Under the pieces are notes generated by a model. That model was not told the origin of the DNA. It ran no database searches and saw only the letters and a list, made by a program, of their open reading frames with translations. Positions 302-15,563 of a DNA stretch of 15,563 bases are shown here, one piece after another. The stretch spans positions 1 to 15,563 of IMG/VR virus record IMGVR_UViG_3300045988_111434. One strand, 5' to 3'. A program made the position numbers and the translations under genes. This DNA is from a virus. Each line of letters opens with the position of its first letter. The first letter of the stretch is position 1.

Positions 302-409
302 CAAATTACGGTTTAATACCAATTAAGACTGTAAATGATATTGGAATAGCTTTGTTAATATCTGTCGTATCATCCATGCCTGTCCTAATTTGAAAACAAG
401 TATTGCCCC

Positions 410-982: not shown

Positions 983-996
983 TTCTTACTCCTTTC

Positions 997-2079
997 TTAC
1001 TGCACATTATTTTTATACCAATCTGGCGTAGTAGTGCCTAACTGCGTTTTACCCCCCTCGTAGATATAAAATAGGCACGTGTCTCCACTATCTACAGTAG
1101 CCCATGACGGCACTAAAATTTCGTATTCTGTGCTTGTGTTTGGTTTTTTTGGAAAGTTAATCACAGCGGGGTAATATATATTTTTGGTATTATTGTACAC
1201 ACTTGCTCCGCCAAACGCTGGATTGCTTAAAAGATTTACAAGATAGGTAAAATTAGGGTCATCAATATCCACATTTTCTGTCACAAATCGACCTATACGT
1301 TTTGAACCTGTGACTTGTTCCGGTGCGGCATTAAATGTTGCCGAGATAATAGCGCTAATAAAGCGTATAGTAACCTCTGGATAGACAAGGTCATACCAGT
1401 CCATAGCCCCATAGTTATTGTCGCTATGTTCACTTCCCGCGGCATGAACATTAACGTGTCCGTGTTTTTTGATAGGCATCACGTCAACGCTAACATTAAC
1501 GTTTGTTACGTCTCCCTGTATATTAGAAATAGTATTGTTAATTTCCTGTTTATATGTGTTCCATTCATTTTCTATTCGTGTAAGAAAATTTTGTACTTCT
1601 TCGATTAACTGATTAATTCTGTTTATATAATTATTAAATTGTTCATCCCAGTTGTCGATTTTTTGCGACCATTCGTACCACGTGTTTACCCAGTTGCTCC
1701 ATTGTGTTTTCCAACTATTAAAAGTTGATTTCCAACTATTAAAAGTTGATTCCCAACTATTAAAAGTTGATTCCCAATTATTAAAAGTTGATTCCCAACT
1801 GTTCCACGTGTCTACCATGCTATTCCATTCGCTGATAATCTGGTTTAGAAGATTTGTTGCGTCCTCAATAAATTTCTTCTGCGCGTCCGTCAGTTCGTTT
1901 ACCTGTTTAATAAGCTGATTAAGCATAGCGGCAATGCGGCATAATACCTCATAGTACGATAGCGCGTCATCATAAACAAGCGGTTGTGTCTTTTGTAACC
2001 AAAACGCAAAGTCCGGAAAATGTACGTCATAAAGTCCAGAATTTACGTTAGGGTTAAATGGGTCAATTTTGTGTGCCAT
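997..2079 (-). CDS. Tail fibre / appendage-like receptor-binding protein with a Trp-rich heptad-repeat stalk
   Basis: 360-aa ORF with a strong SD (GAAAGGAG) and a TAA stop. It occupies the phi29 gp12 position, after the lower collar. The N-terminal motif PLVYDDALSYYEVLCRIAAMLNQLIKQVN is typical of Firmicute phage fibre anchors. The central region is W-x-S-T-F-N-S repeats followed by a beta-rich C-terminal domain. Confidence 0.6.
   Translation of the reverse strand: MAHKIDPFNPNVNSGLYDVHFPDFAFWLQKTQPLVYDDALSYYEVLCRIAAMLNQLIKQVNELTDAQKKFIEDATNLLNQIISEWNSMVDTWNSWESTFNNWESTFNSWESTFNSWKSTFNSWKTQWSNWVNTWYEWSQKIDNWDEQFNNYINRINQLIEEVQNFLTRIENEWNTYKQEINNTISNIQGDVTNVNVSVDVMPIKKHGHVNVHAAGSEHSDNNYGAMDWYDLVYPEVTIRFISAIISATFNAAPEQVTGSKRIGRFVTENVDIDDPNFTYLVNLLSNPAFGGASVYNNTKNIYYPAVINFPKKPNTSTEYEILVPSWATVDSGDTCLFYIYEGGKTQLGTTTPDWYKNNVQ
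1711..1815. repeat. In-frame 21-bp tandem repeat (4 near-identical copies plus degenerate flanking copies) encoding (W)ESTFNS heptads
   Basis: CCAACTATTAAAAGTTGATTY occurs at 1711, 1732, 1753 and 1774. A degenerate copy is at 1795, and further degenerate copies lie upstream to about 1690. Confidence 0.9.
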
Positions 2080-2092
2080 TTCTTACTCCTTT

Positions 2093-2872
2093 CTACCTCA
2101 TCCAGTCAATAGACAGTCCTAAGTTTCCGCGGTTTCCATAAGCCGCCATATTAAAATCGTTTCCATGTTCAGAAAAATCGTCAAAAATTGACATAAACAA
2201 TTCCTCACAATCAGCAATTATCGCGTTATTGACGTTTACAATGTGCTCACGATACATAATGAGTTCGTTCATCTTACTTCCGCGCCACCCTTTTTCCGTC
2301 CTATGGCTAGTGTCTACGATTGACGTGTTACTGCTCCCTGTGTTTCGTTCGCTGACTGCGCGGCTATCTTCTCCGGTGCTTTGTCCTCTTGTCATACCAC
2401 TCGCATAGTCAGTACCGGAAAAATTAACTTGCGGGTTATCACTGTTGATACGTTGGTCATTAGTGTTACTATTGCTAGTATCACTCATGGTTCGGTCTGC
2501 TTGTGATGTGTTGTTACCGTCACTAGTGTCGGTATCGTCAAACGTCATATTTGTATTTTCTAAAATCTGTGCAACACTTAAATTGCTGTCGTACATTGCT
2601 TTGTATTTAGGCATGTTTCGTGTAAGCGTATCATTAAGCTTAAGCTTAAAAAGACCGATTGTTTCAAACCCGATTTCACACATATAAAAATGGATGATAA
2701 ACATGCGCTCAAATTTCGCTTTGCTTGTCTCATCTCCATTGTACCACGGGTACGTAAAATCAAACAGGTGTGGGCGTCCATTGGCTATTTTGTCGTAAGT
2801 AGTAGCATTTACGTCTTTCCAATCTGTAAAACTTTCGATGTACTCTCTAATTCTGGTTGTATATGTCGCCAT
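2093..2872 (-). CDS. Lower collar protein (phi29 gp11-like position)
   Basis: The ORF-track start at 2893 is a TTG. The ATG at 2872 is preceded by GGGGGTGG. It lies directly after the connector gene. The motif FERMFIIHFYMCEIGFETIGLFKLKL resembles lower-collar proteins of small podophages. TAG stop. Confidence 0.55.
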   Translation of the reverse strand: MATYTTRIREYIESFTDWKDVNATTYDKIANGRPHLFDFTYPWYNGDETSKAKFERMFIIHFYMCEIGFETIGLFKLKLNDTLTRNMPKYKAMYDSNLSVAQILENTNMTFDDTDTSDGNNTSQADRTMSDTSNSNTNDQRINSDNPQVNFSGTDYASGMTRGQSTGEDSRAVSERNTGSSNTSIVDTSHRTEKGWRGSKMNELIMYREHIVNVNNAIIADCEELFMSIFDDFSEHGNDFNMAAYGNRGNLGLSIDWMR

Positions 2873-3737
2873 TTTCGCCACCCCCATTTGCAAGATTTTC
2901 TTTTCGCTCTACACCCAATCCACTGCCGATATATCGTACCTCAACGTTAAGACCGAACAAACGGTTAATTTGCTCGCAAGCGCGTTTTCGCACGCTTAAA
3001 AATGATTGGCGATTGATTAACGTTAGGTCAGCGTCCTGTTCGACTTCGCTTGTAATTAGCCGTTCTTTTTTCGTACCGTCAATATTGCTAATACCAAACT
3101 GTACGCAAAAATCAGCAATTTCTTGTCGCATAGCTGTTGTAATATCTCCAAATACGTTTGGCGGGTTTAAATTTAGCACTTTCATGTTTTCCACATTGCT
3201 AATACCGTCTTTTACGCTAATAAATGGTACAAAATCGTTATATTGTTTAAAGAGGTTTTTTGTACTTAATCGTTGGTTTTCGCTCCCCGCTATAACTACA
3301 GGTGTCCTTTGTGCATAGATATTAAGATTTCTCGTCATTCTCATGTTAGCCAAACTTTCCGCATACATCTGTACATAATCTACGCTCGGATAGCCCACAC
3401 TGCTATCCCAGATAATGACGCTGTTATTTTTCCCCAGTGTCTTAAAATACTGCTGTGCATAAGCAAATCGCATGTTTGGCACGCCGTAAATATCTACAGT
3501 GCCGCCGAGGTTGGTTTTCATTACGGCGTATTTTTCCACTACGTCGTCCTCAAAAAAGACCGCCTGTCCCCACCAAAAAAGGTAATCTTCCAACACGCGC
3601 GGCGGGATTTCATCTGGAAGTCCTGCCCATTCAAAACGATTCACAATCATTTCGTGCAACATATTAAAATAACGTATATAATAGTTGCGATATTGTGGCG
3701 TACTGAAATATTCAGCGTCCTTTGATTGTCCTTTCAT
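2847..3737 (-). CDS. Head-tail connector / upper collar (portal) protein, phi29 gp10 family
   Basis: Blocks align with remembered phi29 gp10. [16 protein letters not shown] matches [44 protein letters not shown] matches [38 protein letters not shown] matches [25 protein letters not shown] matches ACEKINELYGLNVKV. The size, 296 aa versus 309 aa, is similar. Confidence 0.9.
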   Translation of the reverse strand: [296 protein letters not shown]

Positions 3738-3755
3738 TTTTCTACCCCCTTTCCG

Positions 3756-5441
3756 TTAATTATTTGCTAAACTATAATTACCAATGTCATTAGTGTGCCA
3801 TATTGTCACACCGCGGTCAAATATTGACCGTAAAATAACAAGGTAATCAAGGTCAATGTTACCGCTGATTGTGCAATTACGTGTTTTGACAAAATCCCAC
3901 GCCGTCCGATTATTGATAGCGGGCGTTCCGATTTCGCCAATTTTATAACCAAACATACTAAAGTAGTCATCAATTTTTCGTGCGTACTCTGCACGTATCT
4001 GCATAGGGTAGTAGCTTATGTGGTCATTACCGATAATCTTACTAGCGTTTCCGCTTGATGTCGTAACATTACCGCTCGGCTGTAGATAATGATTGACTAC
4101 GGATTTAATACCGTCTCCAATAACTTCTGACCAATCGGTACTGCTAAGTGTGGCAAGTGGACTAGACTTAAAAGCTTCACTCGCGGCATCTTTTCCGGTT
4201 GCTAAAGTATTCCCCGTAGCGCTAGCCGCCGCACCCAAAAATCCAAAGCCCGCGCCACTTAACGCTTTTCCAACTCCGCTAAATACTCCGGCAGCAGTGT
4301 CTACACCTTGAGATACTGCGTCGCCCGCACTCATTAAAGCGCTAGCGCCCGCCGTGCTTGTCATCTGTGCAATATATGCCTTGTAGGCGTCTGTCATGAT
4401 TGCGCATTTAGGATAATCCGAAAAAGTTAGCATATCTGTGTAATCTTGTGCGAATCCTTTATACTGGATTGGGTAAGATACTAATAAGGGGTTAGGTGTC
4501 ATTGCTACTGTGTAGGTAAAACTACAAGCATCACTTGAAAAGTATTCGTATTTATATTCGATACCTGTACCGTTATTATTATTTCCGTACAAAAAATTAT
4601 ACGGATAACAAAAAAGCTTTTTGTTTTTCGGAACATAACCATCTATATTGTCATATTTTTTAGGCAAATTTAATTGTTTGAACTGTGTTTCCTCTGCGAT
4701 AAAGCTTGTTGGCATCATAAACGCATTTAAAATGCCGTCAATAGTGCCGTTAGCATTAGCGGAAATCAAAAACTCGCTTACACCGTCGCCGTTGTCAAAA
4801 ACATTAAAAGTGATAGCGGTATAAATACCATCACGGAATTCGCCTCCGTTAAAATTGCCGCTCTCGTCAAACGCGCTAGGAATTACTACACTCATAATAT
4901 TTCTATCGCTCAATTCTGGCGCGTCGTAATTTTGCTCGGTTTCTTGCTTTACAATATAGTCTCCGGTTTCCAAACCCTCCGGAAACGTGTATCGCCCAAT
5001 AACGTCATCACTCTTTTTTACAATCTGTCGTTCGATATAGCATTTGTTTAGTACCATATCGAATTGACAGTTTGTCCAAACGTCCATAATAAAATGTACG
5101 CGGCACGAATTAACTGATAATGGTTCTACGCTTGTAATAAAGCCATATTCCCAATTATCCATATAGCCTACATTTTTAAATGCAATATAGTTAGCACTAT
5201 CTGCATACAGTTCGTTAACAGGCGCGGCAAAATCCGCATAGCCTCTTTTGACTGGTGCGGCATTATCAGTTCTATAAATTGCTTTGCTATCAACATAAGC
5301 AAAAAGTTCTTCGCGGCTGTTGAAAAGACGAACATGATTATAGGACGAATCCCACGGAATCCCGCGGCATATTCTAACCTGTGCTACAGGCGCTATTCCA
5401 TCTACGTTTTTTTGTGTTGGCATCGGTATCATGTTATCCAT
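3756..5441 (-). CDS. Tail knob / distal tail tube protein, phi29 gp9 family
   Basis: 561 aa versus 599 aa in phi29. The N-terminal blocks VRICRGIPWDSSYNHVRLFNS and YIAFKNVGYMDNWEYGFITSVEP...VHFIMDVWTNCQF parallel gp9's [21 protein letters not shown] and YIMFQNADYGNKWFYAFVTELEF...VHFEIDVLQTWMF. It sits between the capsid and connector genes, as in phi29. Confidence 0.8.
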   Translation of the reverse strand: MDNMIPMPTQKNVDGIAPVAQVRICRGIPWDSSYNHVRLFNSREELFAYVDSKAIYRTDNAAPVKRGYADFAAPVNELYADSANYIAFKNVGYMDNWEYGFITSVEPLSVNSCRVHFIMDVWTNCQFDMVLNKCYIERQIVKKSDDVIGRYTFPEGLETGDYIVKQETEQNYDAPELSDRNIMSVVIPSAFDESGNFNGGEFRDGIYTAITFNVFDNGDGVSEFLISANANGTIDGILNAFMMPTSFIAEETQFKQLNLPKKYDNIDGYVPKNKKLFCYPYNFLYGNNNNGTGIEYKYEYFSSDACSFTYTVAMTPNPLLVSYPIQYKGFAQDYTDMLTFSDYPKCAIMTDAYKAYIAQMTSTAGASALMSAGDAVSQGVDTAAGVFSGVGKALSGAGFGFLGAAASATGNTLATGKDAASEAFKSSPLATLSSTDWSEVIGDGIKSVVNHYLQPSGNVTTSSGNASKIIGNDHISYYPMQIRAEYARKIDDYFSMFGYKIGEIGTPAINNRTAWDFVKTRNCTISGNIDLDYLVILRSIFDRGVTIWHTNDIGNYSLANN

Positions 5442-5456
5442 GCTTTCCTCATTTCT

Positions 5457-5477
5457 AGGGGAGCATTACACTCCCCT
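5457..5477 (-). other. GC-rich stem-loop (AGGGGAG-7 nt-CTCCCCT) between the capsid and tail-knob genes; possible RNA stabiliser or partial terminator
   Basis: 7-bp perfect stem read directly. There is no U-tract downstream on the coding (minus) strand; the T-run lies upstream of it. Confidence 0.3.
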
Positions 5478-5487
5478 CAAAAATCAA

Positions 5488-5503
5488 TGTTTCACGTGAA
5501 ATA
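5488..5503. promoter_or_regulatory. parS: parS-like site, 15/16 match to the consensus (TGTTTCACGTGAAATA)
   Basis: One mismatch (C to T at 5502) relative to the three perfect copies. It lies immediately after the capsid gene's TAA stop. Confidence 0.6.
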
Positions 5504-5504
5504 T

Positions 5505-6782
5505 TTACTGATTGACTGTGACTGTGCCTGTACCGCTGATTGTGCTATTATATCTGGATGTTGCTTTGACTGTAAGCGTCGCCGCTTTTTCGTCATTTGC
5601 AATATGCAAGATATTTGAGCCAGGAATAAAGGACGTATACTGACTAGTTGCGCCATCGACGTCAAAGTCAAGCATTTGCGGCGTATACTGGCTTGTTCCG
5701 CTCGCTAACGCTGTAATTTCAACATCAGTTCCAACGTTTCCGGCTGTGTCTGTAACACTTACAGTTGTGAGTCCGACTGTATCTGTCGTGAAAACGATAC
5801 AAGGGAAAAACGGCGAATAAGAAAACATTTCAGACATAGTGTAGAAATAATTCCATGTCAGAGCCGCACCATTTCTGGAATCTGTCAGTGTCCGGAAATT
5901 CTCGCGCACATTGAAAAATCTCATATCGAACAGCGCAAGCTTGATATTAGAGTCATCGAACTTGTCGATGATAATTTTGCGAACGTTAATATCAACCTTG
6001 TCCATATTAAACGCCGTCGCAAGAACCTCAACGTCTAATTCCGCGTCTATCTCCGGTGTCGTGATGTAAAAGATAGTCTGGTCATTCGCACAACTATCTG
6101 CACCTGCAATGTTGTACTCTGGGTGCGGGAATTTCATCTGCCCGATGTACGATTTGACAAGTTTTGTCAATTTCTTTGCGTTCTCCGCGTTTGCCGTAGG
6201 GTCTGCAATATTAACTGCGTAAAGCTGGTCTGCCGCACTTGCGCTCTCAATCAAACGCTTCATGCACAAATATTCATCCCAGTTCGCCGCCGCAAAAAGC
6301 GACTGCACTTTTGCGTTAATCAAATCGCGCACGCCGTACTCCGATTTAAACGCCGTACGTAAGTTGTCAAACGTGACTGTAACTGCGTACTGGATAGCCG
6401 GTGTTATCTTATGGTAAGCCGCCATGACGCTTGACTGGTAATAAGCATATAATTCTGCTACAGTTGCAAACTGGTTAAACTGCTTACCCTTTGCCATGTT
6501 AACAAAGATTTCTTCCTCTGTTCCGCCATAACGCATAGGGTCTCTCTTAAGCACTCCCAGAGGATTCTCAAAAAAGACGGTTTCGATTCTCTGCTCCATA
6601 ATCTGTTCAACTAATGCATTAGCAAACGCGTTTCTCAACGGTACAATATTAAGCAAACTCTCGTAGATACTCGAGATATTCTCCGCTGTCGCTTTCGGAA
6701 TCCTTTCACGATATTCCAAACTCTGCATTGACCTCACAGCATTTAAAATAGCTTCGTTTGTAGCCGCTACCTTGTTATCCAT
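5505..6782 (-). CDS. Major capsid protein, phi29 gp8 family, with a C-terminal Ig-like (BIG2-type) domain
   Basis: [28 protein letters not shown] parallels gp8's [58 protein letters not shown] parallels [30 protein letters not shown]. The C-terminal region of about 90 aa is beta-rich (TVSVTD...VTVKATS...GTVTV). Strong SD (AAAGGAGAG). Confidence 0.85.
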   Translation of the reverse strand: [425 protein letters not shown]

Positions 6783-6799
6783 TTTCTTCTCTCCTTTCT

Positions 6800-7090
6800 T
6801 TACTCTGTACTACCATCAAAATCAAGCATTTCCGGCGTTACATCTTCGGTAACGCCCACATCTGCTACAGGATCTTCTATGTCCTTGCTAGGCATTTCCT
6901 GACCCGTCAGCATTTCTCCAAAACGCGCAATGTACTTTTCGCGCAAGTCCTCATAGCGCTCTTTGTACCCATCGTCAGATACGTTTGCGCCGCTTCTGAT
7001 TGACTCCGTAATTACATTGATTTCTTCGTCTAATTCTTCCGGCGCGTCGATTTTTCCTAAGATAGCTTTTAAAGCTTCTTCTGCTGTCAT
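6800..7090 (-). CDS. Putative scaffolding protein (phi29 gp7-like size and position)
   Basis: 96 aa, highly acidic and predicted helical, immediately upstream of the capsid gene. SD GAGGTAAAAGAA before the ATG. Confidence 0.55.
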   Translation of the reverse strand: MTAEEALKAILGKIDAPEELDEEINVITESIRSGANVSDDGYKERYEDLREKYIARFGEMLTGQEMPSKDIEDPVADVGVTEDVTPEMLDFDGSTE

Positions 7091-7095
7091 TTCTT

Positions 7096-8241
7096 TTACC
7101 TCACTTTCCCTAAAAATGGTTTTAGATAATATATAAAAGGCGTTTTTCTCCCGCTCGGAACGGGCGACACACCTAATATATTGATTGGAACATCTTGATA
7201 AACATTAACATCATCATTGATATAAAAACGTAAAACAATACGCGTTAATGCTGTGTTTGCAATTTTTATGTAAACGCTGTTGCCATCTTTTCGATACAAG
7301 CTAGCACCGCTAGGTACTCTAACACTCCATGCTCTATTAGCTGATACCATAAATCGTACTACAGTATTAACATTAGCCGTCTGGCTATAAGGCGTTACGC
7401 GGATAGACGGCGCCGGTGGCGCGGGTCTGTTAATACCAATCTGGCATTGCGTCTGTATACTAGCATCATCTATAAGCCAAAAGGCTATGGCTGTTGTAAT
7501 CTGCGCGGCGTTTGCATTTCCGCTGACTACAAGCGCGCCATCAGTTTTTTCTACAAGTGAGAGATACTGCCCCAAGTTGTACGTCCATTCTCCGCTCGCG
7601 TTAACGTTAATAGTAAGAGTATCCCCATCTACAATACTAGCACTGATTGGCGATATAGTCAAGCTTTTTCTTTCAATCGGCGCAGAACCATTAAAAGTAT
7701 CGTAAATATCTTGAGAGTAAGCATAACGTTTATCTTGCACTTCTTGTCCTTGTAGGGTTGGATTCTCAAAATAAAATAATACATGATTGCTTGCGGCGCG
7801 TATATCTGTTGCGTTTTGCAAAACTGACAAAGTGTCATTATATCCATGCGTTTCTAGCTCCGATTTAAGATATGCTAATGCTAAATCTATGTTTCCAATG
7901 CTGTCATAATTTCCGTTTTTCCACATATTATACAAAGCTTGCTTTCGGGAATAATACGACCATTGCGCTAATCCATATCCGGGTTTTCCCTCATAGAGTC
8001 CACCATTGACAAAAGCGTTCTCGCTTACCACTCCGCTATCAACATCTTTAGTATAATTTTTACTTGCCAAAAACTTATTAGTGCTATTGTTATCTTTTTC
8101 ACATCTATAAGGCACTATTCCACTCTCTGCAAATAAGTTACCCATCATCGCCGCTACGCCTATAGGGTTATTTATGTACGTCATTAAATTATCCCACACC
8201 GCTTTACTATATCCATAGTCTACATAATCACTCAATGCCAT
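7096..8241 (-). CDS. Putative virion-associated peptidoglycan hydrolase (phage tail lysozyme-like N-terminal domain) with two C-terminal Ig-like beta modules
   Basis: The N-terminal motifs GVAAMMGNLFAESG ... GYGLAQWSYYSRKQAL resemble the phage tail lysozyme family. The C-terminal half has two beta-rich modules separated by RPAPPAPS. Confidence 0.5.
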   Translation of the reverse strand: MALSDYVDYGYSKAVWDNLMTYINNPIGVAAMMGNLFAESGIVPYRCEKDNNSTNKFLASKNYTKDVDSGVVSENAFVNGGLYEGKPGYGLAQWSYYSRKQALYNMWKNGNYDSIGNIDLALAYLKSELETHGYNDTLSVLQNATDIRAASNHVLFYFENPTLQGQEVQDKRYAYSQDIYDTFNGSAPIERKSLTISPISASIVDGDTLTINVNASGEWTYNLGQYLSLVEKTDGALVVSGNANAAQITTAIAFWLIDDASIQTQCQIGINRPAPPAPSIRVTPYSQTANVNTVVRFMVSANRAWSVRVPSGASLYRKDGNSVYIKIANTALTRIVLRFYINDDVNVYQDVPINILGVSPVPSGRKTPFIYYLKPFLGKVR

Positions 8242-9309
8242 TTACATCAACCTCACACTCAATATATCCAACACAATATTTTTGCATTTTAAATCCTTAA
8301 ATCTTAATAGCCCCATATCATAAGACCTCTTTAAATAGTCATAAATAAAAGACTTGCTCGATAACATCAGCGTATCTGCATTATGACTTGATGGGTCAAA
8401 AGTAAAAACATATCTCGCGTTCGGGTCTGCTGTATAGTCAATATAAACTATACCTTTTTCCGGATATTCCCTCACAGCGAAACGGTCTTTCCCGCATACA
8501 AGGGTAAAAATATAGTTGCTGTTGCCACTGATTTTCTCAACAAAAGCCGTTGCGTCGCACAGATACGTTCCATCTGCGCTAGATTTTTGGTATGCACTAT
8601 TGCTAAAAACTTTTGTCAATCCGCTCTCATTGATAGCTTTTTGTGCGTCCTTATTAACGGTAAACTGCGCCACCCAACCGTTGCCGCGCAAGAATTTTGT
8701 GTTATCACGCAATCTCTTATGTATGCCAAAATAGATAAAATAGGGGTTAAGCAAGCTAACATAATTTGCTAACATGTAGACAGGCACTTCCCGCACTTGC
8801 TTGCCCTTACCTCTACAAATACTCCGCAATACACTCTCAAATTTTGTAATCTCATTTCGCAAATATCCGTTATTTTCAAGCACAAATTCGTCAAAAACAA
8901 TCAAATTAACCTCTTTAAACATCGGGCTATATTTCTTAATTTTATCGGAATTACTAAAATATACCGCATATCCAAGCACGCCTTGGTTGTCCTCTGCATC
9001 ATGTAAAATTAAAGCACTAATAAGCCCTTTTACTACACTTTTGTTAGTAACAACTTTTCCGTATTCTGGATAAATCTCCAACACATCTTCATACATCTTT
9101 CCACTGCTTGCTATTTCATCCTGTGTACGGTATAAAAAGACAACTTGCGAACCGTCCTCTTTATGATTATTCAAGCTTTCAATCAGCAAAGCCGTTGTTT
9201 TTCCGGCACTTCGATTGCCAATAATCATACGCAAAATCGGTTCACAACCGTCTAAATCTTTTACACTTTTAATTTCATCTAAATTATAATAAGGTTTTGT
9301 AAACTTCAT
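8242..9309 (-). CDS. DNA encapsidation (packaging) ATPase, phi29 gp16 family
   Basis: Walker A is GNRSAGKTT and Walker B is LIVFDEF. The size, about 355 aa, fits. The ORF-track start at 9324 is a TTG. The ATG at 9309 (MKFTKPYYN) follows a GGGGGGAATAAAA SD. Confidence 0.85.
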   Translation of the reverse strand: MKFTKPYYNLDEIKSVKDLDGCEPILRMIIGNRSAGKTTALLIESLNNHKEDGSQVVFLYRTQDEIASSGKMYEDVLEIYPEYGKVVTNKSVVKGLISALILHDAEDNQGVLGYAVYFSNSDKIKKYSPMFKEVNLIVFDEFVLENNGYLRNEITKFESVLRSICRGKGKQVREVPVYMLANYVSLLNPYFIYFGIHKRLRDNTKFLRGNGWVAQFTVNKDAQKAINESGLTKVFSNSAYQKSSADGTYLCDATAFVEKISGNSNYIFTLVCGKDRFAVREYPEKGIVYIDYTADPNARYVFTFDPSSHNADTLMLSSKSFIYDYLKRSYDMGLLRFKDLKCKNIVLDILSVRLM

Positions 9310-9328
9310 TTTTATTCCCCCCAAAAAA

Positions 9329-9399
9329 CTAGCGCGGCGGGAATCGAACCCGCATTGATAGAATTAAAATCTATTGTTCTGCCGTTAAACTACACGCCA
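9329..9399 (-). tRNA. tRNA with anticodon UUA (predicted ochre/UAA suppressor, tRNA-Sup-TTA); acceptor features resemble tRNA-Gln
   Basis: Hand-folded cloverleaf. Acceptor UGGCGUG/CGCGCUA with two G-U pairs. U8. D arm GUUU-AACGGCA-GAAC with G18G19. Anticodon arm AUAGA-UUUUAAU-UCUAU with U33 and A37. Variable loop is 4 nt. T arm GCGGG-UUCGAUU-CCCGC. Discriminator G. The anticodon lies at 9365..9367 (plus strand TAA). CCA is not encoded, and a T6 run follows. Confidence 0.85.
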
Positions 9400-9403
9400 A
9401 TAA

Positions 9404-9419
9404 TGTTTCACGTGAAACA
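9404..9419. promoter_or_regulatory. parS: Perfect parS consensus site TGTTTCACGTGAAACA, within the 22-bp palindrome 9401..9422
   Basis: Exact match to the ParB/Spo0J consensus TGTTNCACGTGAAACA. It overlaps the holin stop codon and lies 5 nt upstream of the tRNA. Confidence 0.75.
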
Positions 9420-9743
9420 TTAAGAAATCTTTTCTAAAATAGACCGGATTTTTTCGGGTACTAAGTTTTTGTTTATTCTCCCGACATTTTCCAAAATCGA
9501 GCCAATCTCCATAAGGGTAATATAACTACACATTGAATAGGAAACCGGAACGGTAAAACCAAGGTCAAGATAACTCTGCCCCCAGTCAATGAGTACGGCG
9601 CATGCAATCACACAAACAGAGCCGAATTTGTTAAAAAGACCTTCTCTCATGATTGAGGAATTAAAGTTTTTGTTTTTTACCGCCATCACGATTCCAGACA
9701 CAAAATCCAGAACCATAAATAAAAAAGTAATTAAATAAATCAT
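9420..9743 (-). CDS. Holin (LL-H / TcdE-like Phage_holin_4 family)
   Basis: 107 aa starting MIYLITFLFMVLDFVSGI, from the ATG at 9743 after AAGGGAGAGGAAAAAAGG. It has hydrophobic segments plus the family-typical ...YITLMEIGSILENVGRI..VPEKI tail. The ORF-track extension to 9887 starts at a TTG and covers structured noncoding sequence. Confidence 0.75.
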   Translation of the reverse strand: MIYLITFLFMVLDFVSGIVMAVKNKNFNSSIMREGLFNKFGSVCVIACAVLIDWGQSYLDLGFTVPVSYSMCSYITLMEIGSILENVGRINKNLVPEKIRSILEKIS

Positions 9744-9844
9744 CCTTTTTTCCTCTCCCTTATTTATTTTAGAGGTTCGCCGCCACCCTTGCGGACACCA
9801 CTCCGCGCCCCTGCGTTTTTCCGCATGGTGTACGGGACTTAACG

Positions 9845-9960
9845 GGATGGCGGGTAATACTCCATTATGGACTTTGAGCGGACACAAACAAACAAAATAA
9901 GAGGAATTATGAAAGTTATCTCAAAGCCCATAATGCAATACACCCGCCTACCCGCCATCC
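9845..9960 (-). ncRNA. Candidate structured RNA: 116-nt extended hairpin (12-bp and 16-bp helices) in the 333-nt noncoding gap upstream of the holin
   Basis: 9845..9856 (GGATGGCGGGTA) is the exact reverse complement of 9949..9960. 9863..9878 pairs with 9920..9935 over 16 bp. The single non-Watson-Crick position is G-U on the minus-strand transcript but A-C on the plus strand, which favours minus-strand RNA. Confidence 0.35.
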
Positions 9961-9966
9961 ATCGGC

Positions 9967-9972
9967 ATTATA
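9967..9972 (-). promoter_or_regulatory. Candidate -10 box (TATAAT) of a late promoter lacking a good -35 element
   Basis: The minus strand reads ...GCATTGCACAGCATTAAATGTTGTATAATGCCGATGG. The predicted start falls at the 5' edge of the 9960..9845 helix. No TTGACA-like hexamer occurs at 16-18 nt spacing. Confidence 0.25.
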
Positions 9973-10076
9973 CAACATTTAATGCTGTGCAATGCCGATA
10001 AATGCCATTCAATGACATTCTACTGCATGCATGTTGTTTCATGCGGTTGGATGGCAGATATGCGGTTTATCATTAT

Positions 10077-10505
10077 TTAATTGTCATCTTCGTCAAAGTC
10101 CATATACGGTTCTGCTTCAACAAGTTCGCGTACATTGATAGCCTTGAGATACGCTGACTGGAATTTCTTAGACTTGTACCGCCCGTCCATCTGCTCGCGG
10201 ACGCGGATGGTTACTGCCGAACCATTGCCGATTTTGCGCAATTCCTCGATGTTTTCGTCATCGTTATCTGTTACCACGGGTTCGCCCTGCATGTAGAGAT
10301 TGACCGGATATTTTGTGTGCGCCTTGTATAACACCTTGCCATCAAGATTACCTTCGCCATCCTTTAACGGATTCTCAACCTTTGCGTCGTACACCTCGCG
10401 GAGTTCTGCCGCTGTTTTCTCATCAATCTCGATTAAAATTGATACATCATTGTCATCTTTAACAAAAAGATTTCTTACGATTCCTCTGATTTTTCTGCTT
10501 GCCAT
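10077..10505 (-). CDS. Putative single-stranded DNA-binding protein (acidic C-terminal tail)
   Basis: 142 aa in the early region, with a C-terminal DFDEDDN tail typical of SSBs and a beta-rich core. There is no direct family recognition. Confidence 0.4.
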   Translation of the reverse strand: MASRKIRGIVRNLFVKDDNDVSILIEIDEKTAAELREVYDAKVENPLKDGEGNLDGKVLYKAHTKYPVNLYMQGEPVVTDNDDENIEELRKIGNGSAVTIRVREQMDGRYKSKKFQSAYLKAINVRELVEAEPYMDFDEDDN

Positions 10506-10543
10506 TGTTTTTATTCCTTTCTTATTTAAGATTTGTTAGTTAA

Positions 10544-10559
10544 TGTTTCACGTGAAACA
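10544..10559. promoter_or_regulatory. parS: Perfect parS consensus site TGTTTCACGTGAAACA
   Basis: Exact 16-mer with palindromic AA..TT flanks (10542..10561). It lies between the stop of the 99-aa gene (10566) and the start of the SSB-like gene (10505). Confidence 0.75.
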
Positions 10560-10565
10560 TTTGTC

Positions 10566-10865
10566 TTACTTGGAAGCCTGTGTAGACTCTGCCGTTGCAG
10601 ATTTACGATTATTCCAATCCTTTTCCGTCATGGAGTGCGCCATGAAATCCTCGTAGGAAATGTAGCGCTTTTCCTCTGTTCTGCCGGATTCGATGAACTG
10701 GATTTTTTTGCCGGAGTACTTCTTCTCGATTTCCTTTTTGGTAGCCGTGTCAATATCGTCCGCTAAATGCAGATGATTAAGAATTTCAATCCCCTTGTTC
10801 GGAGTTACCGTTACGACGTCATAGTCTACGGATGTCGTGACCGTTCTTGTGAATGGTGCTTTCAT
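10566..10865 (-). CDS. Hypothetical early protein
   Basis: 99-aa ORF with SD AGAGGAACAACACA before the ATG and a TAA stop. No recognisable motif. Confidence 0.6.
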   Translation of the reverse strand: MKAPFTRTVTTSVDYDVVTVTPNKGIEILNHLHLADDIDTATKKEIEKKYSGKKIQFIESGRTEEKRYISYEDFMAHSMTEKDWNNRKSATAESTQASK

Positions 10866-10945
10866 TGTGTTGTTCCTCTCTTTCTTTTTTGTTTTGCTTG
10901 ATTTCTGTGGGCTTGTTTGAAATGTTGCTTGCCATCATCAGACGC

Positions 10946-10983
10946 AAGGTTGCAACCCTTGTACGTGACGCCCGTTAGGGCGT
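10946..10983 (-). other. Two adjacent hairpins after the 62-aa gene: ACGCCC-GTTA-GGGCGT and the near-palindrome AAGGTTGCAACCCTT
   Basis: Read directly. They begin 6 nt after the TAG stop. No U-tract follows on the minus strand, so this is not a canonical terminator. Confidence 0.3.
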
Positions 10984-10988
10984 TTCGG

Positions 10989-11177
10989 CTATTCCTGTTC
11001 GCTTAACAATAATGAGTTTTTATAAAAACTTAAAACTTCAAAATTTTTGTATTTATAAATCATGTCTAACGCCTGTCCATAATCCCATTTAATACCGCCT
11101 AAATGATTATATCTAATACTTAATACTGTGTCTGGTTTCCATTCTGCGTTTGCTGTGAATAAATCAAATAATGTCAT
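10989..11177 (-). CDS. Hypothetical early protein
   Basis: 62-aa ORF with SD GCGAGGAAACCACA before the ATG and a TAG stop. It is the first full-length gene downstream of the tandem-repeat leader. Confidence 0.55.
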   Translation of the reverse strand: MTLFDLFTANAEWKPDTVLSIRYNHLGGIKWDYGQALDMIYKYKNFEVLSFYKNSLLLSEQE

Positions 11178-11254
11178 TGTGGTTTCCTCGCTTTCTTGTT
11201 TTTGTGTTTTATTGTTTTTATCTTCCTTACATTATTTATTATACGCTTGCTTCT

Positions 11255-11314
11255 CTATTTTCTTGTGTCTACTGTGCCGTACTTTTTTACCTTTTCATAA
11301 AATGTTCTTCTCAT
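11255..11314 (-). CDS. Possible 19-codon leader mini-ORF (MRRTFYEKVKKYGTVDTRK), copy 2
   Basis: ATG at 11314 preceded by GCGAGGAAACAAAC; TAG stop at 11255. Identical to the copy at 11377..11436. Expression is unproven. Confidence 0.25.
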   Translation of the reverse strand: MRRTFYEKVKKYGTVDTRK

Positions 11315-11376
11315 GTTTGTTTCCTCGCTTTCTTGTTTTGTATCTCCCTTACATTATTTATTATACGCTTGCTTCT

Positions 11377-11436
11377 CTATTTTCTTGTGTCTACTGTGCC
11401 GTACTTTTTTACCTTTTCATAAAATGTTCTTCTCAT
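11377..11436 (-). CDS. Possible 19-codon leader mini-ORF (MRRTFYEKVKKYGTVDTRK), copy 1
   Basis: ATG at 11436 preceded by GCGAGGAAACAAAC; TAG stop at 11377. Confidence 0.25.
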   Translation of the reverse strand: MRRTFYEKVKKYGTVDTRK

Positions 11437-11481
11437 GTTTGTTTCCTCGCTTTCTTGTTTTGTATCTCCCTTACATTATCT

Positions 11482-11509
11482 ATTATACACTACTTCTCTA
11501 TTTTGTCAA
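11482..11509 (-). promoter_or_regulatory. Consensus sigma-A type promoter: TTGACA - 16 nt - TATAAT
   Basis: The minus strand reads TTGACAAAATAGAGAAGTAGTGTATAAT (-35 at 11504..11509, -10 at 11482..11487). It lies 15 nt downstream of the polymerase stop. In repeat units B and A the -35 equivalent is TAGACA at 22-nt spacing, so those are probably weak. Confidence 0.6.
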
Positions 11510-11524
11510 CTATTATTTTTAAAA

Positions 11525-13708
11525 TTATTCAGAAAAATTTATGCATGAACCTAACACCGCCGCGTATTCGTCTGATATACCTAGCGTATATGTGGTATCT
11601 ACGATAGCTATGTTAGACGCTGTGGTAAACTCACATTCTTTTCCTGTATAATCTTTTACTTTTATAGTATGTATATTGCTCTCGTTAAAATAAGACACTG
11701 TACGCCCAGAATCTATAAAAATTTTGCCAATTTTAAAATCATCTAAACCATTTCCTCGTGCTAATTCTGCCGCTCCCTTTGATTTTGATAGACCGGATAC
11801 AGTAACATGCAAAACATCCTCTGTTTTCCCTGTTTTTTTGTTTTTCTCGGACGCTATGTATGCGTACTTTTTAGCTCCCAAAGTTTTAAATTTTTTGTAG
11901 TATCCGTCATCGTCCCATACACCGAGCGTATAACGCGTAGTAGTGCCATCATCATTAACACGTTCACTGTAGTTTCTATACTTTTGCTTTTTGGATAATA
12001 AGTAATTATTTCTATCTTCAAATGATTTTAAGTGCTCTTTATTTATAAATTTTACGCTGTCAGTATCTGCATAAACAAAATCATAGCCGCAAGCGTCAAT
12101 CATGCACTGTAGTTCATACCGCGCGTTTGCCGTAATGTATACACCCCATTGATATAGCAAAAAAGAGTTTTTGCTTGCGGCGTAAGCCGCTATAGCACTC
12201 TCTTCGTCCGGCATTGACTTAGTCCACTTCCCATCTATGTATTCTATCTCGCCTTGACATATGTCTGTTACCATTGCGCCAAAAATAGCATTTAATTTAT
12301 TCTTGCTTTTTGCGTACTCGTATTCTTTTCCGTCGACATCCTTAAGTTGTGTTTTTTTGTCGTACCAAGCTAACATTATATCAACTATTGGTTGTGGCAA
12401 GTAGTCTTTTTCTGCCTTATAACCCTCTAGCCACTCTACACGCTCGGTATCATACTTATATTGATTGTTAATAATTAAAAAGTCTAACTCTGTACATGCA
12501 TATATTATCCAATCGGCAGATAATACGCGCCCGTTATCATTTACATAATTTTTGCTATATGCAATGCAGTGCGCAAAATCAATATATGGGACAGTTACAT
12601 CTTCCCGCACTTCTAGGTCAAAAAGAGTTATACGCATTATAATAGCGTTTTTCTCTTTACAGCAATCTAGTATAAGCCTATCGAAAGATTGTGGCTCGTA
12701 TTTAACAAACGGTGTCATAGGATATAAATCAGACGCTATACACGCGGGATAGCTAGATACCCTATCCATGCTATATACATCGTTTATTATTGCGTCCGCA
12801 TAATAGCGTGACGCGTGAGTATTGCCGCCCCTAAAAGCTTGCCGTAAAAGCTTGTAAATCGGTACAGTAGGCATAAGCATTTCAAACAGTTCTCGATACT
12901 CTGGATATTTGCGACATTCTGCGCGCATTGCACGACGTACATAACCTGTCGATGTGAGAGGTATCGTAGCTAATGTATCGCATTCATCATCTAACTTTGA
13001 TAAAATGCACTCTTCTAAACCTTTTACATCGTTATAGCAATACGCTAATTCTTCTTGCGTCATCGGTGTTATCGGTGTACGTACTTTTCTGTAATCATAC
13101 GTATCTACCAGTTTGTAATGTGTGCAAAATTTGCTATTTTCGCAAAATTTAGCTAAAGACATATTTGACAAAAAGTAACTACATCTAAATTCAAAAAAAG
13201 GTATTGCAGATGTTTCACGTGAAACATTTCCAATTTTATTTATACCTTTCTCATAATCGCTTTCCAAACAAGCTAACAATTTAATAACCTTGTGCGCTTC
13301 TCGCGCAAAAAGAGATTCTATATGCAGAAAATCCTTTACAAACATAAACTCATAAGCTAAATTATGCACATATATTACTAGCACTTTATTAGCGGCTAAT
13401 TCAAGCGCTATGCCTAAATTATGCATAAACTTTAGCCATTCTTCCCAAGTTCGCCCAAAACAAACTTTCCCATTTAAGCAAAATTGCCAATGATACATAA
13501 ATGCTTCTGGATTTTCTCCATCTATTGTAGTGCTTTCTATGTCAAACGTTGCCGGAGTTGCTATGTATGTAAGTCCATTTCTGCCTTTTTTCCTCACTGT
13601 AGTACAACCTAAAGCTATAGCGTCATACGGATATGACGCTACACTGTAAACTATCTCTTCTTCTACTGTTTCTTTTCCATTTTTTGTCTGTGCTACTGAT
13701 ATTACCAT
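11525..13708 (-). CDS. Family B DNA polymerase, protein-primed type (phi29 gp2-like)
   Basis: Exo I is FDIESTT, Exo II is VHNLAYEF and Exo III is YCYNDVKGL. Motif A is MDRVSSYPA, motif B is KSKNKLNAIFGAM, motif C is YADTDSV, and the KxY motif is GAKKYAY. Strong SD AAAGGGGAG. It co-occurs with ITRs and a gp16-type ATPase. Confidence 0.95.
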   Translation of the reverse strand: MVISVAQTKNGKETVEEEIVYSVASYPYDAIALGCTTVRKKGRNGLTYIATPATFDIESTTIDGENPEAFMYHWQFCLNGKVCFGRTWEEWLKFMHNLGIALELAANKVLVIYVHNLAYEFMFVKDFLHIESLFAREAHKVIKLLACLESDYEKGINKIGNVSRETSAIPFFEFRCSYFLSNMSLAKFCENSKFCTHYKLVDTYDYRKVRTPITPMTQEELAYCYNDVKGLEECILSKLDDECDTLATIPLTSTGYVRRAMRAECRKYPEYRELFEMLMPTVPIYKLLRQAFRGGNTHASRYYADAIINDVYSMDRVSSYPACIASDLYPMTPFVKYEPQSFDRLILDCCKEKNAIIMRITLFDLEVREDVTVPYIDFAHCIAYSKNYVNDNGRVLSADWIIYACTELDFLIINNQYKYDTERVEWLEGYKAEKDYLPQPIVDIMLAWYDKKTQLKDVDGKEYEYAKSKNKLNAIFGAMVTDICQGEIEYIDGKWTKSMPDEESAIAAYAASKNSFLLYQWGVYITANARYELQCMIDACGYDFVYADTDSVKFINKEHLKSFEDRNNYLLSKKQKYRNYSERVNDDGTTTRYTLGVWDDDGYYKKFKTLGAKKYAYIASEKNKKTGKTEDVLHVTVSGLSKSKGAAELARGNGLDDFKIGKIFIDSGRTVSYFNESNIHTIKVKDYTGKECEFTTASNIAIVDTTYTLGISDEYAAVLGSCINFSE
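13211..13226. promoter_or_regulatory. parS: Perfect parS consensus site embedded in frame in the polymerase gene (codons N161-T166, NVSRET)
   Basis: The 18-bp perfect palindrome ATGTTTCACGTGAAACAT at 13210..13227 lies between Exo II and Exo III. Confidence 0.7.
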
Positions 13709-14241
13709 AAAGTTCTCCCCTTTACATAAACATGTGTTGCGCTAGAATATTCTTGCAATTCTTGCTGTATCTCTGTATGCGTTTTCCCTTGTGAAAAAAG
13801 CAAATCATAGATTTCTATAATATCTTCCGACGGATTACGCATTTTTAAACTTTTGTATTCTTGACTATGCAGAAAAGTATAAAAATCTGCTTCATTTAAT
13901 AAATTTTCTGATACACCTAAATCGCGTAATGCTTGCGTGCGCTCTTGTCTTATTTCCCTTATACCAGTTAAAGTATGGGAGCGCGCTGTGACAAAACGAA
14001 CTAGCTTGAGATACGCCCGTGAATTATACTTGTCAATATCCCAATCCGTCCTCTTGTGCAACACATTTAATACACTTTCTTTCTCCAAACCTTGCTTTTC
14101 AATCCGTGCTTTTTGCTTGTTTGCTAACGGCACGAGTTGCTTGTACATCTCGCGCCGCTGTTTCCCCCGCAAACTTAAGAGGTAGTCCTTGTTATACATT
14201 GCGCAAATGCTCGGACGCAAACGTCCAAGCGATACGCTCAT
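13702..14241 (-). CDS. Putative terminal protein (assigned by position)
   Basis: 179-aa basic protein directly upstream of the polymerase start, overlapping it by 7 nt, the same arrangement as phi29 genes 3 and 2. The ATG at 14241 has a GGAG SD. An alternative ATG at 14199 overlaps the upstream stop. No sequence motif was recognised. Confidence 0.4.
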   Translation of the reverse strand: MSVSLGRLRPSICAMYNKDYLLSLRGKQRREMYKQLVPLANKQKARIEKQGLEKESVLNVLHKRTDWDIDKYNSRAYLKLVRFVTARSHTLTGIREIRQERTQALRDLGVSENLLNEADFYTFLHSQEYKSLKMRNPSEDIIEIYDLLFSQGKTHTEIQQELQEYSSATHVYVKGRTLW

Positions 14242-14449
14242 TTAGGCGCTCCAATACGTCATAATAATCGTCTTTACGCTCGATTATTACAGCCACGATG
14301 ATATTCACGCCATTATTTACGCACACGCAAAATGTTAAACCTAAAGAGCCGTCACTATAAGGACAGGCACTATCAAAAAGAACATCATCCCACTTTTCAT
14401 GCACGTTTTTCACGATAAAACTTTTAATTTCTTCCTGTGTTCTTGTCAT
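14192..14449 (-). CDS. Hypothetical early protein
   Basis: 85-aa ORF with a strong SD (GGAGGGATAAA) before the ATG, one base after the endolysin stop. Confidence 0.6.
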   Translation of the reverse strand: MTRTQEEIKSFIVKNVHEKWDDVLFDSACPYSDGSLGLTFCVCVNNGVNIIVAVIIERKDDYYDVLERLNERIAWTFASEHLRNV

Positions 14450-14450
14450 T

Positions 14451-15170
14451 TTATCCCTCCGTTATAATAGCCTTGAACCCCGCACTCTCAAGTGCTACTA
14501 ACAAATTGTGCGCATTTTCGAGATTGTGGAAAGCGCCCTTTTGATAGAGCACTGATACACGATAAATTTTATTCGTATCAGACTTTTCTGCTACATCTAA
14601 TTCATCATCCGGCATTGACGGTTCGTTCGTTGACACTGTAATGCAACGCTTCCCAGTGATACCGTAAACAATAGCCGCCGCCATTTCCTCTGAATTATAT
14701 AGTGATACGTCTTTATCAGACGACACAAAGCAACACTCAATTAGCATAGCCGGCGCGCTTGTACGCCGTAAAAACGCAAGCTTACTGTTTGTTTTAACTC
14801 CACGATTGCGAAAACCAAGTGAGCATATAGCATTTAAAGTTTCCCTTGCAGTGCTTACTGCTTGTGACCTGTCGGAGTATACATATACTTCTGCCCCGCT
14901 TGCCTGCGCGTTAGACGCAGAATTAAAATGAATTGATACATCCAAGTCAACTTTGTGTACGTTGCATTTTCTAATAATACGATTTAGTACATCGGATTGA
15001 GATATACCATCTTCTACCGTACAATCATATACAGTATGACCCATACGTCGTAATTCGTCCACCACTAAGTCTTTGACGCGTCTATTTTCAATCGACTCTG
15101 AAATAAGACCCACTGCACCACAAGCTACCTTTCCGTGCGGGTTATGCCCCGCGTGTACATTGATTACCAT
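14451..15170 (-). CDS. N-acetylmuramoyl-L-alanine amidase (Amidase_3) endolysin with a short SPOR-like C-terminal module
   Basis: Motifs are NVHAGHN...E...GH.V...DLDVSIHFNS...GAEVYVYS...RNRGVK...APAMLIECCF, resembling clostridial phage Amidase_3 endolysins and CwlC. The C-terminal IYRVSV..GAFHNLENAHNLLVALESAGFKAII resembles a SPOR repeat. SD AAGAGAGGAAAAATAA. Confidence 0.8.
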   Translation of the reverse strand: MVINVHAGHNPHGKVACGAVGLISESIENRRVKDLVVDELRRMGHTVYDCTVEDGISQSDVLNRIIRKCNVHKVDLDVSIHFNSASNAQASGAEVYVYSDRSQAVSTARETLNAICSLGFRNRGVKTNSKLAFLRRTSAPAMLIECCFVSSDKDVSLYNSEEMAAAIVYGITGKRCITVSTNEPSMPDDELDVAEKSDTNKIYRVSVLYQKGAFHNLENAHNLLVALESAGFKAIITEG

Positions 15171-15190
15171 TTATTTTTCCTCTCTTTCTG

Positions 15191-15216
15191 ATAGACTATT
15201 TCTATCTATAGTCTAT
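15191..15216. promoter_or_regulatory. Operator-like inverted repeat ATAGACTAT - 8 nt - ATAGTCTAT overlapping the -10 and start region of the right-end promoter
   Basis: 9-bp perfect arms at 15191..15199 and 15208..15216. The inner arm overlaps the -10 hexamer by 2 nt. Confidence 0.45.
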
Positions 15217-15243
15217 TATAAACATAGAGTATAATTTTGTCAA
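15215..15243 (-). promoter_or_regulatory. Perfect consensus sigma-A promoter TTGACA - 17 nt - TATAAT driving the early operon
   Basis: The minus strand reads TTGACAAAATTATACTCTATGTTTATAAT (-35 at 15238..15243, -10 at 15215..15220). It lies 20 nt inside the right ITR boundary and 45 nt upstream of the endolysin ATG. Confidence 0.7.
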
Positions 15244-15262
15244 TCAGAACTTGTGTTTGTAT

Positions 15263-15563
15263 TAGTTATCCACACCAAACAAGTGTTCGATAGTGTTCGC
15301 CCACCAAAGACAGGTTGTGTCCGCGGTGGACGGACACTTTTTGTTTGAATTGTATATACAATTATGATAAATTGTTCTATTGTCTGATTCTAATAAAATC
15401 AATGGTAAAAGTGCATAAAATTTTGGTGTATGTTTGTGCAATATTACTATTGACATCTTATGTTCTATCAAGTTTTCCGTAGCGAATTTAATATCTGAAA
15501 ATCGAACAAGTGTTTGTATTTTTGGGGAAAACAGTGTCCGTCCTGTACGGACTATGTAACTTT
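15263..15563. repeat. Right inverted terminal repeat (ITR), 301 bp
   Basis: Reverse complement of 1..301. It ends exactly at the window end, which implies a complete linear replicon. Confidence 0.95.

Follow-up and report, generated by a model that had tools for sequence, protein, structure and literature searches.

The stretch of DNA analysed here (the window, 15,563 nt) is positions 1 to 15,563 of the IMG/VR virus record IMGVR_UViG_3300045988_111434, i.e., the whole record stretch, and our subject is a transfer RNA (tRNA) gene in it whose anticodon, UUA, would read the stop codon UAA. The gene is 71 nt long, occupies positions 9329–9399 of the minus strand, and has no encoded CCA. ARAGORN reported one tRNA in the window (tRNA-Stop with anticodon tta, 9328–9400, minus strand), and Rfam family RF00005 was matched from 9399 to 9329 over the full model (1–71) with 63.3 bits against a gathering score of 29 (E = 5.5e-12). 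An initial annotation, made from the letters alone, had proposed a canonical tRNA with the anticodon UUA at plus-strand positions 9365–9367, and both programs uphold it, with the addition that the gene itself lies on the minus strand. The acceptor stem UGGCGUG/CGCGCUA contains the pairs U1-A72, G2·U71, and G3-C70 and is followed by the discriminator G73, the D stem GUUU/GAAC encloses the D loop AACGGCA, the anticodon stem AUAGA/UCUAU encloses the loop UUUUAAU (U33, U34-U35-A36, A37), and the V loop CAAU leads into the T arm GCGGG-UUCGAUU-CCCGC. The conserved tertiary nucleotides expected of a member of the tRNA family, as listed in the initial annotation from U8 to the R15-Y48 pair, are all present (U8, A14, G18G19, A21, U33, A37, G53, the T loop, C61, and A15-U48). 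The anticodon base A36, a T at plus-strand position 9365, is not a read error, because an independent ENA assembly (L202, ERZ1314886; ~58x coverage, reported in 3 samples) reproduces the UUA tRNA within 6.3 kb that are 100% identical to the window; the tRNA with anticodon UUA is real.

The tRNA gene lies between a holin gene and a packaging-ATPase gene, and all protein genes of the window are on the minus strand together with it. The holin gene directly upstream (9420–9743, minus strand; 107 aa) was recognized by a PHROG holin match and by Pfam Phage_holin_4_1 on the identical L202 product. Its true start, MIYLITF, was set by comparison with the closely related contig L113, and an apparent frameshift relative to L113 was rejected, as the indel falls upstream of that start. 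A reading of the sequence revealed a 22-nt perfect palindrome, TAATGTTTCACGTGAAACATTA, at 9401–9422, directly 5′ of the tRNA, which includes the holin stop codon (9422–9420, minus strand), is conserved in all relatives, and could function as a hairpin in the RNA, as an operator, or as a site of recombination. Its core, TTTCACGTGAAA, occurs exactly four times in the window (5490–5501, 9406–9417, 10546–10557, and 13213–13224), three of the copies standing just after stop codons (of the capsid gene, the holin gene, and a 99-aa gene) and one within the polymerase gene. A 13-mer of the palindrome also directly precedes tRNA genes in numerous unrelated environmental contigs, for the most part those of tRNA-Arg(CCU) and in other cases those of Pro, Gln, and Asn tRNAs, and in L084 it stands on both sides of the tRNA. 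Downstream, a linker (9310–9328, minus strand) composed of UUUUUU (9328–9323), a Shine-Dalgarno sequence GGGGGG conserved in relatives (9322–9317), and the spacer AAUAAAA (9316–9310) connects the tRNA to the gene of a phi29 gp16-like DNA-packaging ATPase (8242–9309, minus strand; 355 aa from the ATG at 9309; PHROG terminase match, 2.5e-52; Pfam Podovirus_Gp16 in L202). An exact-protein look-up gave no match for the ATPase, while the holin look-up did match. No promoter or terminator consensus was found beside the tRNA, which fits its co-transcription.

Perfect 301-bp inverted terminal repeats at 1–301 and 15263–15563, starting AAAGTTAC, close the window at both ends, and it is therefore a complete, linear, protein-primed phi29-like genome of 15,563 bp; the ends of the phi29 genome start AAAGTA. 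With PHROG and Pfam matches for a family-B protein-primed DNA polymerase, a gp16-like packaging ATPase, a major head protein, a tail knob, upper and lower collar proteins, a holin, and an endolysin, the phage is assigned by homology to the phi29-like podoviruses. No near match to the genome was found in 50,697 deposited phages, and the nearest cultured relative is Clostridium phage HM2, with an ATPase identity of 43%. Nearly all homologues of the endolysin (50–55% identity) belong to gut Lachnospiraceae, e.g., Roseburia, Acetatifactor, and Merdimonas, and the related contigs come from human-gut metagenomes, for which reasons the host is probably a member of the Lachnospiraceae, an assignment that holds at family level only. 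The 18 main open reading frames (ORFs) of the window end in TAA (14), TAG (4), and TGA (0), in keeping with the earlier statement that this phage stops mostly at TAA. Glutamine (Gln) codons amount to 67 CAA and 62 CAG, with a 14:1 preference for CAG in the capsid gene, and the demand of the phage for Gln decoding is thus modest. Classified phi29-like phages have no tRNA genes and only some metagenomic clusters have them (review, PMC11476376); the rarity of tRNAs in this group is in line with the initial annotation, which held a functional UAA suppressor to be unusual in a 15-kb phage.

Relatives were collected from IMG/VR (36) and from further human-gut contigs in ENA (short-read SPAdes assemblies); L041 and ~30 other pattern matches were dropped as unrelated contigs. 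A tRNA is present at the same position, between the palindrome and the Shine-Dalgarno sequence of the ATPase gene, in ~48 distinct genomic contexts, and it is missing from the more distant relatives HM2, CS229P2, and MT835854. In ~21 of the contexts the tRNA has a normal 7-nt loop with anticodon UUG and is called as tRNA-Gln; tRNA-Gln(UUG) is the ancestral form at the locus. Over 10.9 kb, the sibling L113 and the window share 98.6% identity, and within the tRNA and its two flanks the only difference is that L113 has G36 in place of A36 (C instead of T at plus-strand position 9365). Because nothing but position 36 differs, the window tRNA is a G36A mutant of a phage tRNA-Gln(UUG), in which a single substitution converted a sense anticodon into UUA and left the rest of the tRNA intact, as in ochre suppressors of the supB and T4 psu2+ type. 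The initial annotation had likewise derived the tRNA from tRNA-Gln, by means of identity elements that are those of E. coli GlnRS; since the UUG alleles are syntenic, the derivation now stands on direct homology instead of E. coli identity rules. Besides its homology to the UUG alleles, the tRNA retains the weak 1-72 pair (U1-A72) and G73 of the tRNA-Gln lineage, A72 and G73 being invariant across alleles. Gln codons (CAA/CAG) are read by NUG anticodons, and by its sequence UUA no longer reads them.

Anticodon UUA was found in 6 of the ~48 genomes. A second UUA lineage, comprising L020, L021, L025, L027, and L114, has another backbone and the loop UUUUAAC, and its genomes are 87.5–95.8% identical among themselves and ~76% identical to the window. 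Because UUA sits on two different backbones, the G36A change arose independently at least twice. As for a donor or a corresponding host tRNA, the 3′ half of the tRNA had no exact match in 185,579 species genomes, and no close homologue of the tRNA was found in the 50,697 deposited phage genomes.

Apart from UUG and UUA, the locus holds forms of the tRNA that depart further from a functional decoder. The 49 contexts compared contain 39 distinct tRNA sequences. The anticodon loop has 6 nt in 11 contexts, on both backbones, and 8 nt in ~9–10, and it is scrambled in 1; ~40% of the relatives carry 6- or 8-nt loops and would be unable to decode normally, and ~50% of the alleles are unable to read Gln codons. 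Several alleles are damaged in the T stem, the acceptor stem, or the D stem. In L002 (1500–1560), a deletion from the anticodon arm onward has removed the 3′ two-thirds of the tRNA and joined the D-arm sequence GGGAGAAC straight to the ATG of the ATPase gene, which is intact and for which GGGAG of the former D arm is now the Shine-Dalgarno sequence. Sequencing or assembly error as the source of the odd loops was rejected, as all large protein genes of these relatives are intact and single-frame, free of frameshifts, and the same alleles occur in different samples. In view of the 6-nt, 8-nt, and scrambled loops, the L002 deletion, and the tRNA-less distant relatives, Gln decoding by this tRNA appears to be dispensable in this clade.

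The tRNA also moves independently of its surroundings, its divergence being uncoupled from that of the adjoining ATPase gene. L024 (UUG, type A) and L025 (UUA, type B) are 99–100% identical for hundreds of bases on both sides, whereas their tRNAs are only 64% identical. Such near-identical flanks around dissimilar tRNAs indicate that the tRNA has been exchanged as a cassette, with the palindrome as its upstream edge and the Shine-Dalgarno sequence of the linker as its downstream edge.

The body of the tRNA is conserved. Pairing in the cloverleaf is kept in 97.5% of cells across fifteen alleles of 71 nt, compared with 34–49% in slid controls, and 11 of the 21 pairs have changed on both sides. 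Within backbone groups, diversity is 0.028–0.082 in the tRNA, 0.15–0.36 at flanking third positions, and 0.023–0.126 at first and second positions, the tRNA value corresponding to 13–41% of flanking third-position diversity; common stem variants preserve pairing, and the variants that break pairs are singletons. Low diversity and the continued pairing of the common variants point to purifying selection on the body. The loop behaves differently. In group B (25–26 genomes), where the anticodon stem is invariant, nucleotide diversity (pi) is 0.225 in the anticodon loop, 0.044 in the body, and 0.15–0.20 at flanking third positions (column-permutation P = 0.007), and group A follows the same trend (0.163 in the loop vs 0.073 in the body, P = 0.085). 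The anticodon loop thus appears to be the least constrained part of the tRNA, varying at or above the synonymous rate.

Whether the phages make use of UAA suppression can be judged from their stop codons. A tblastn search with the genes of all relatives found no in-frame TAA in the conserved genes of the UUA genomes, and there is no stop gain or loss between the window and L113, in agreement with the earlier remark that no phage ORF here needs an in-frame TAA. A nonsense mutation paired with the suppressor was a candidate that fell with the same search. Two apparent stops in the polymerase gene relative to L113 proved to be artefacts of scoring single bases in multiply substituted codons, and an unfiltered scan for in-frame stops was set aside since it was dominated by spurious alternate-frame ORFs. 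Stop usage is alike in UUA genomes (61% TAA, 30% TAG, 9% TGA) and UUG genomes (68%, 23%, and 9%), the lengths of potential read-through extensions do not differ between the two, and TAA is not depleted as a terminator in the window, as a reassigned codon would be, given the 14 of 18 ORFs that it ends. Since in-frame TAA codons are lacking and stop usage and extension lengths are alike, the genomes are neither recoded, nor dependent on suppression, nor adapted to it.

Two gene junctions in the window would allow read-through to fuse neighbouring proteins. The TAA of the ATPase gene (8242–8244) directly adjoins the ATG of the lysin gene (8239–8241) in frame, and the TAA of the tail knob gene (3756–3758) is followed after 6 codons by the in-frame ATG of the upper collar gene (3735–3737). 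The ATPase-lysin junction is confined to this lineage; it is identical in the UUG sibling L113, and relatives, the other UUA genomes included, have different frames at this place; a programmed ATPase-lysin fusion was therefore rejected as coincidence. In-frame junctions are in any case unremarkable, because about one third are expected in frame by chance.

On balance, we favour the explanation that the UUA form, a G36A allele of the accessory tRNA-Gln(UUG) of a clade of ~15.5-kb phi29-like human-gut phages, is tolerated, and that suppression of stop codons by it is probably incidental. What selection maintains at the locus appears not to be codon reading, because the body is conserved while the loop drifts or diversifies between UUG, UUA, 6-nt, and 8-nt states. 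The UUA allele would accordingly represent a loss of Gln decoding that is tolerated; it would be neither a recoding device nor a programmed suppressor, and any read-through from it would be incidental and low in level. From expression through processing and charging to weak suppression, the inferred course of events is as follows. As part of the late transcription unit, the tRNA most likely shares a transcript with the genes on either side of it, those of the holin and the packaging ATPase. Cleavage by RNase P at the 5′ end of the tRNA would give an upstream mRNA that ends in the palindromic hairpin, and cleavage by RNase Z behind G73, a few bases ahead of the Shine-Dalgarno sequence of the ATPase gene, would be followed by the addition of CCA. 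The ancestral product would have decoded CAA and CAG as glutamine until, in the window strain, UUG became UUA by a single transition. A mature RNA that is still charged, be it with Gln or, where only a non-discriminating glutamyl-tRNA synthetase (GluRS) acts, with glutamate (Glu), would read UAA and more weakly UAG in the manner of supB-type suppressors. Charging with Gln relies on G36 as an identity base of the anticodon, and i6A37 modification by MiaA relies on the signal A36-A37-A38. Because the identity base G36 has been lost and the loop has A36-A37-U38 without the i6A37 signal, the efficiency of suppression is probably low.

Several observations weigh against a merely tolerated allele. 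The type-B UUA allele is carried by genomes diverged by 4–12%, for which reason it is not ephemeral and could be favoured, and the same G36A change arose twice. An arms race with defences that target tRNAs would likewise leave a conserved body and a loop whose variation matches or exceeds the neutral rate. The count of distinct variants is not significantly enriched in the loop (11 of 75, P = 0.12), so that the loop excess is one of allele frequency only, and slippage in the UUUU homopolymer could raise the variation of the loop even under unchanged selection. Low diversity of the body, in turn, could partly reflect recent recombinational spread of the cassette instead of purifying selection. 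The identical UUA tRNA of L020 and L021 sits within an 800-nt block shared by recombination and was on that account rejected as a sign of purifying selection.

Other explanations assign the locus a function of its own. One is an anti-defence role, which we consider rather unlikely, where the cassette counters a host system that cleaves or senses tRNA-Gln through an anticodon nuclease or a similar effector; the loop variants would resist cleavage or act as uncleavable decoys, and the body would be conserved so that the RNA remains recognised. Such a role is consistent with a conserved body whose loop is as variable as synonymous sites or more, with the invariant anticodon stem of group B, and with the cassette swap between the 99–100% identical flanks of L024 and L025, which is typical of accessory or counter-defence hotspots. 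Phage tRNAs have also been proposed, and shown by experiment, to evade tRNA-targeting defences through changes in the anticodon loop (PMC10264068; PMC11464382 and PMC11555353). These evasion tRNAs, however, keep their anticodon and a 7-nt loop, whereas ~50% of the alleles here cannot read Gln codons; the candidate nuclease and the host tRNA-Gln are hypothetical for a host inferred to family level, variants occur in every tRNA region, slippage in the U-run can explain changes in loop length, and the L002 lineage has deleted the tRNA. The initial annotation named possible roles in which UAA suppression would be there by design, namely programmed read-through, takeover of the host, or a counter to a host defence acting on tRNA or on translation termination. 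As an adaptive ochre suppressor, a charged UUA tRNA would give useful read-through of UAA and UAG, for example by extending host proteins during takeover or the phage's own proteins. In favour of it, the tRNA has an intact cloverleaf of high score that includes U1-A72 and G73; its loop UUUUAAU has the same bases as that of the E. coli supB-type tRNA-Gln ochre suppressor; G36A occurred twice, and the type-B allele persists across genomes of 87.5–95.8% average nucleotide identity; L027 has a compensated T-stem pair on the UUA background; and TAA is the main stop of both host and phage. We nevertheless regard this function as distinctly doubtful. Conserved genes are free of in-frame TAA, the UUA genomes show neither a stop shift to TGA nor shorter extensions, and the window allele stands one base from its UUG sibling with no accompanying change. 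The ATPase-lysin junction is older than the mutation and not conserved, the locus holds further non-Gln loop states besides UUA, and ~78% of the phage's own genes would suffer read-through. Design is weakened further by the 6- and 8-nt loops of ~40% of the relatives, the one deletion, and the position of the loop as the least constrained part. The broader claim that spans both, namely that the tRNA is not mainly a decoder but has a selected body and a loop under diversifying selection, with UUA, 6-nt, and 8-nt forms as adaptive variants of a swappable counter-defence cassette (for example, uncleavable decoys or inhibitors of a Lachnospiraceae tRNA-Gln nuclease) or with UUA as a natural ochre suppressor used against the host, strikes us as unlikely.

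Non-coding roles and plain decay complete the range of explanations. The tRNA-shaped element might act in cis as processing punctuation, a signal for RNase P and RNase Z that divides the ATPase mRNA from a holin mRNA with the palindromic hairpin at its end; the anticodon loop would then be irrelevant and UUA a neutral state. The order hairpin-tRNA-UUU-Shine-Dalgarno-ATG is conserved in all relatives, the same palindrome follows the stop codons of other genes, and the conservation of the acceptor stem, the T arm, and the D/T elbow beside a free anticodon loop would suit such a signal, as would the lack of a promoter or terminator consensus next to the tRNA. Yet L002 does without the tRNA and still has an intact ATPase gene, more distant relatives have no tRNA either, and the anticodon stem, which RNase P and RNase Z do not need, is invariant in group B, so that we hold punctuation to be quite improbable. 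Still far less probable is a decaying relic that drifts towards loss, or an A36 that is an assembly error. Many alleles have lesions in the loops and in the T, acceptor, and D stems, and one is truncated, but the tRNA has only 13–41% of third-position diversity, its common variants pair and its pair-breaking variants are singletons, covariation is strong, A36 is reproduced in the independent ~58x assembly, and the contigs are free of frameshifts in large genes.

A few other elements of the genome were noted in passing. A ~330-nt non-coding stretch (9744–10076) between a gene for a protein resembling single-stranded DNA-binding proteins (SSB-like) and the holin gene contains a candidate structured non-coding RNA (9760–9965, minus strand) with a promoter-like TTGCAC...TGTATAAT and a long-range helix GGAUGGCGGG/CCCGCCAUCC, whose predicted fold has a minimum free energy of −81.8 kcal/mol (z = −4.95). 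Its motifs are kept in divergent relatives with apparent compensatory changes (GCGGAGUGGUGUCCGC vs GCGCCGUGGUUGGUGC), no Rfam match was found for it, and it may serve this phi29-like clade as packaging RNA. The idea that the tRNA might stand in for the phi29 packaging RNA was dropped as unnecessary, given this separate, conserved candidate upstream of the holin gene. A second candidate, a type II hammerhead ribozyme (10923–10990, minus strand), lies in the gap between two small early genes; it matches RF02276 below threshold (30 bits vs a gathering score of 37; E = 1e-4, from a 161-nt search), its catalytic core CUGAUGA/CGAAAC is intact, and the region is 98.5% conserved in L112. Two tandem repeats differ between the window and L113. 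One, of 122 nt in 2.4 copies (96% matches), is non-coding, lies at 11212–11504 between the stop of the DNA polymerase gene and a 62-aa gene, and differs in copy number; the other, of 21 nt in 4.3 copies, lies in frame at 1711–1800 in a 360-aa tail-associated gene and differs by exactly one unit.

A UAA-reading tRNA would matter if it pointed to recoding of TAA, which to our knowledge is not established in bacteria or phages, or to takeover of the host by global read-through, and the evidence speaks against both. Our result should thus prevent over-interpretation of such a gene as a new genetic code or as a programmed suppressor. It is of interest for another reason, since a natural UUG to UUA suppressor mutation has been caught in population data, twice in phage tRNA-Gln genes, and since the sole tRNA of a tiny phi29-like gut phage clade behaves as a cassette that recombines, its body being conserved and its anticodon loop free of constraint. 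The locus is a test case for phage tRNAs that are kept for non-decoding reasons, such as RNA processing or interference with tRNA-targeting immunity, and we see in the population-level pattern a more interesting lead than in suppression.

Among known systems, E. coli supB (glnU) and psu2+ of phage T4 are ochre suppressors derived from tRNA-Gln(UUG) that were obtained in laboratory selections for the rescue of nonsense mutants and whose activity was measured. The window tRNA shares with them the single G36 to A change that turns UUG into UUA in a glutamine tRNA and the loop bases UUUUAAU, and with that of T4 also its encoding by a phage. Unlike supB and psu2+, the allele described here is natural, belongs to uncultured gut phages with no nonsense mutation to rescue, and is known from sequence alone. 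Surveys of gut phages have counted TAA suppressors beside TAG and TGA suppressors (bioRxiv 10.1101/2021.08.26.457843), and some phage suppressor tRNAs are apparently unused (PMC12386605). Recoded phages of the human gut, as described in these two studies, likewise encode a predicted stop-reading tRNA, but have many in-frame TAG or TGA codons in late genes and a depletion of the reassigned codon as a stop, whereas here TAA is the main stop and never in frame. The Klebsiella jumbo phage phiKp24 (PMC8386662) also has a predicted tRNA with a UUA anticodon in a phage that is not recoded; in that jumbo phage, however, the Sup-TTA tRNA is one of many and of reported arginine identity, whereas here it is the sole tRNA of a 15.6-kb phage, derives from tRNA-Gln, and has a traceable origin. 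Finally, the tRNAs by which phages evade immunity (PMC10264068; for PARIS and retrons, PMC11464382 and PMC11555353) resemble the present locus in being accessory, in varying the loop while keeping the body, and in occupying a cassette-like hotspot. These evading tRNAs keep their anticodon and a 7-nt loop and still decode, whereas at the locus described here a hypervariable loop on a conserved body changes in both anticodon and length, and decoding is lost in about half of the alleles.

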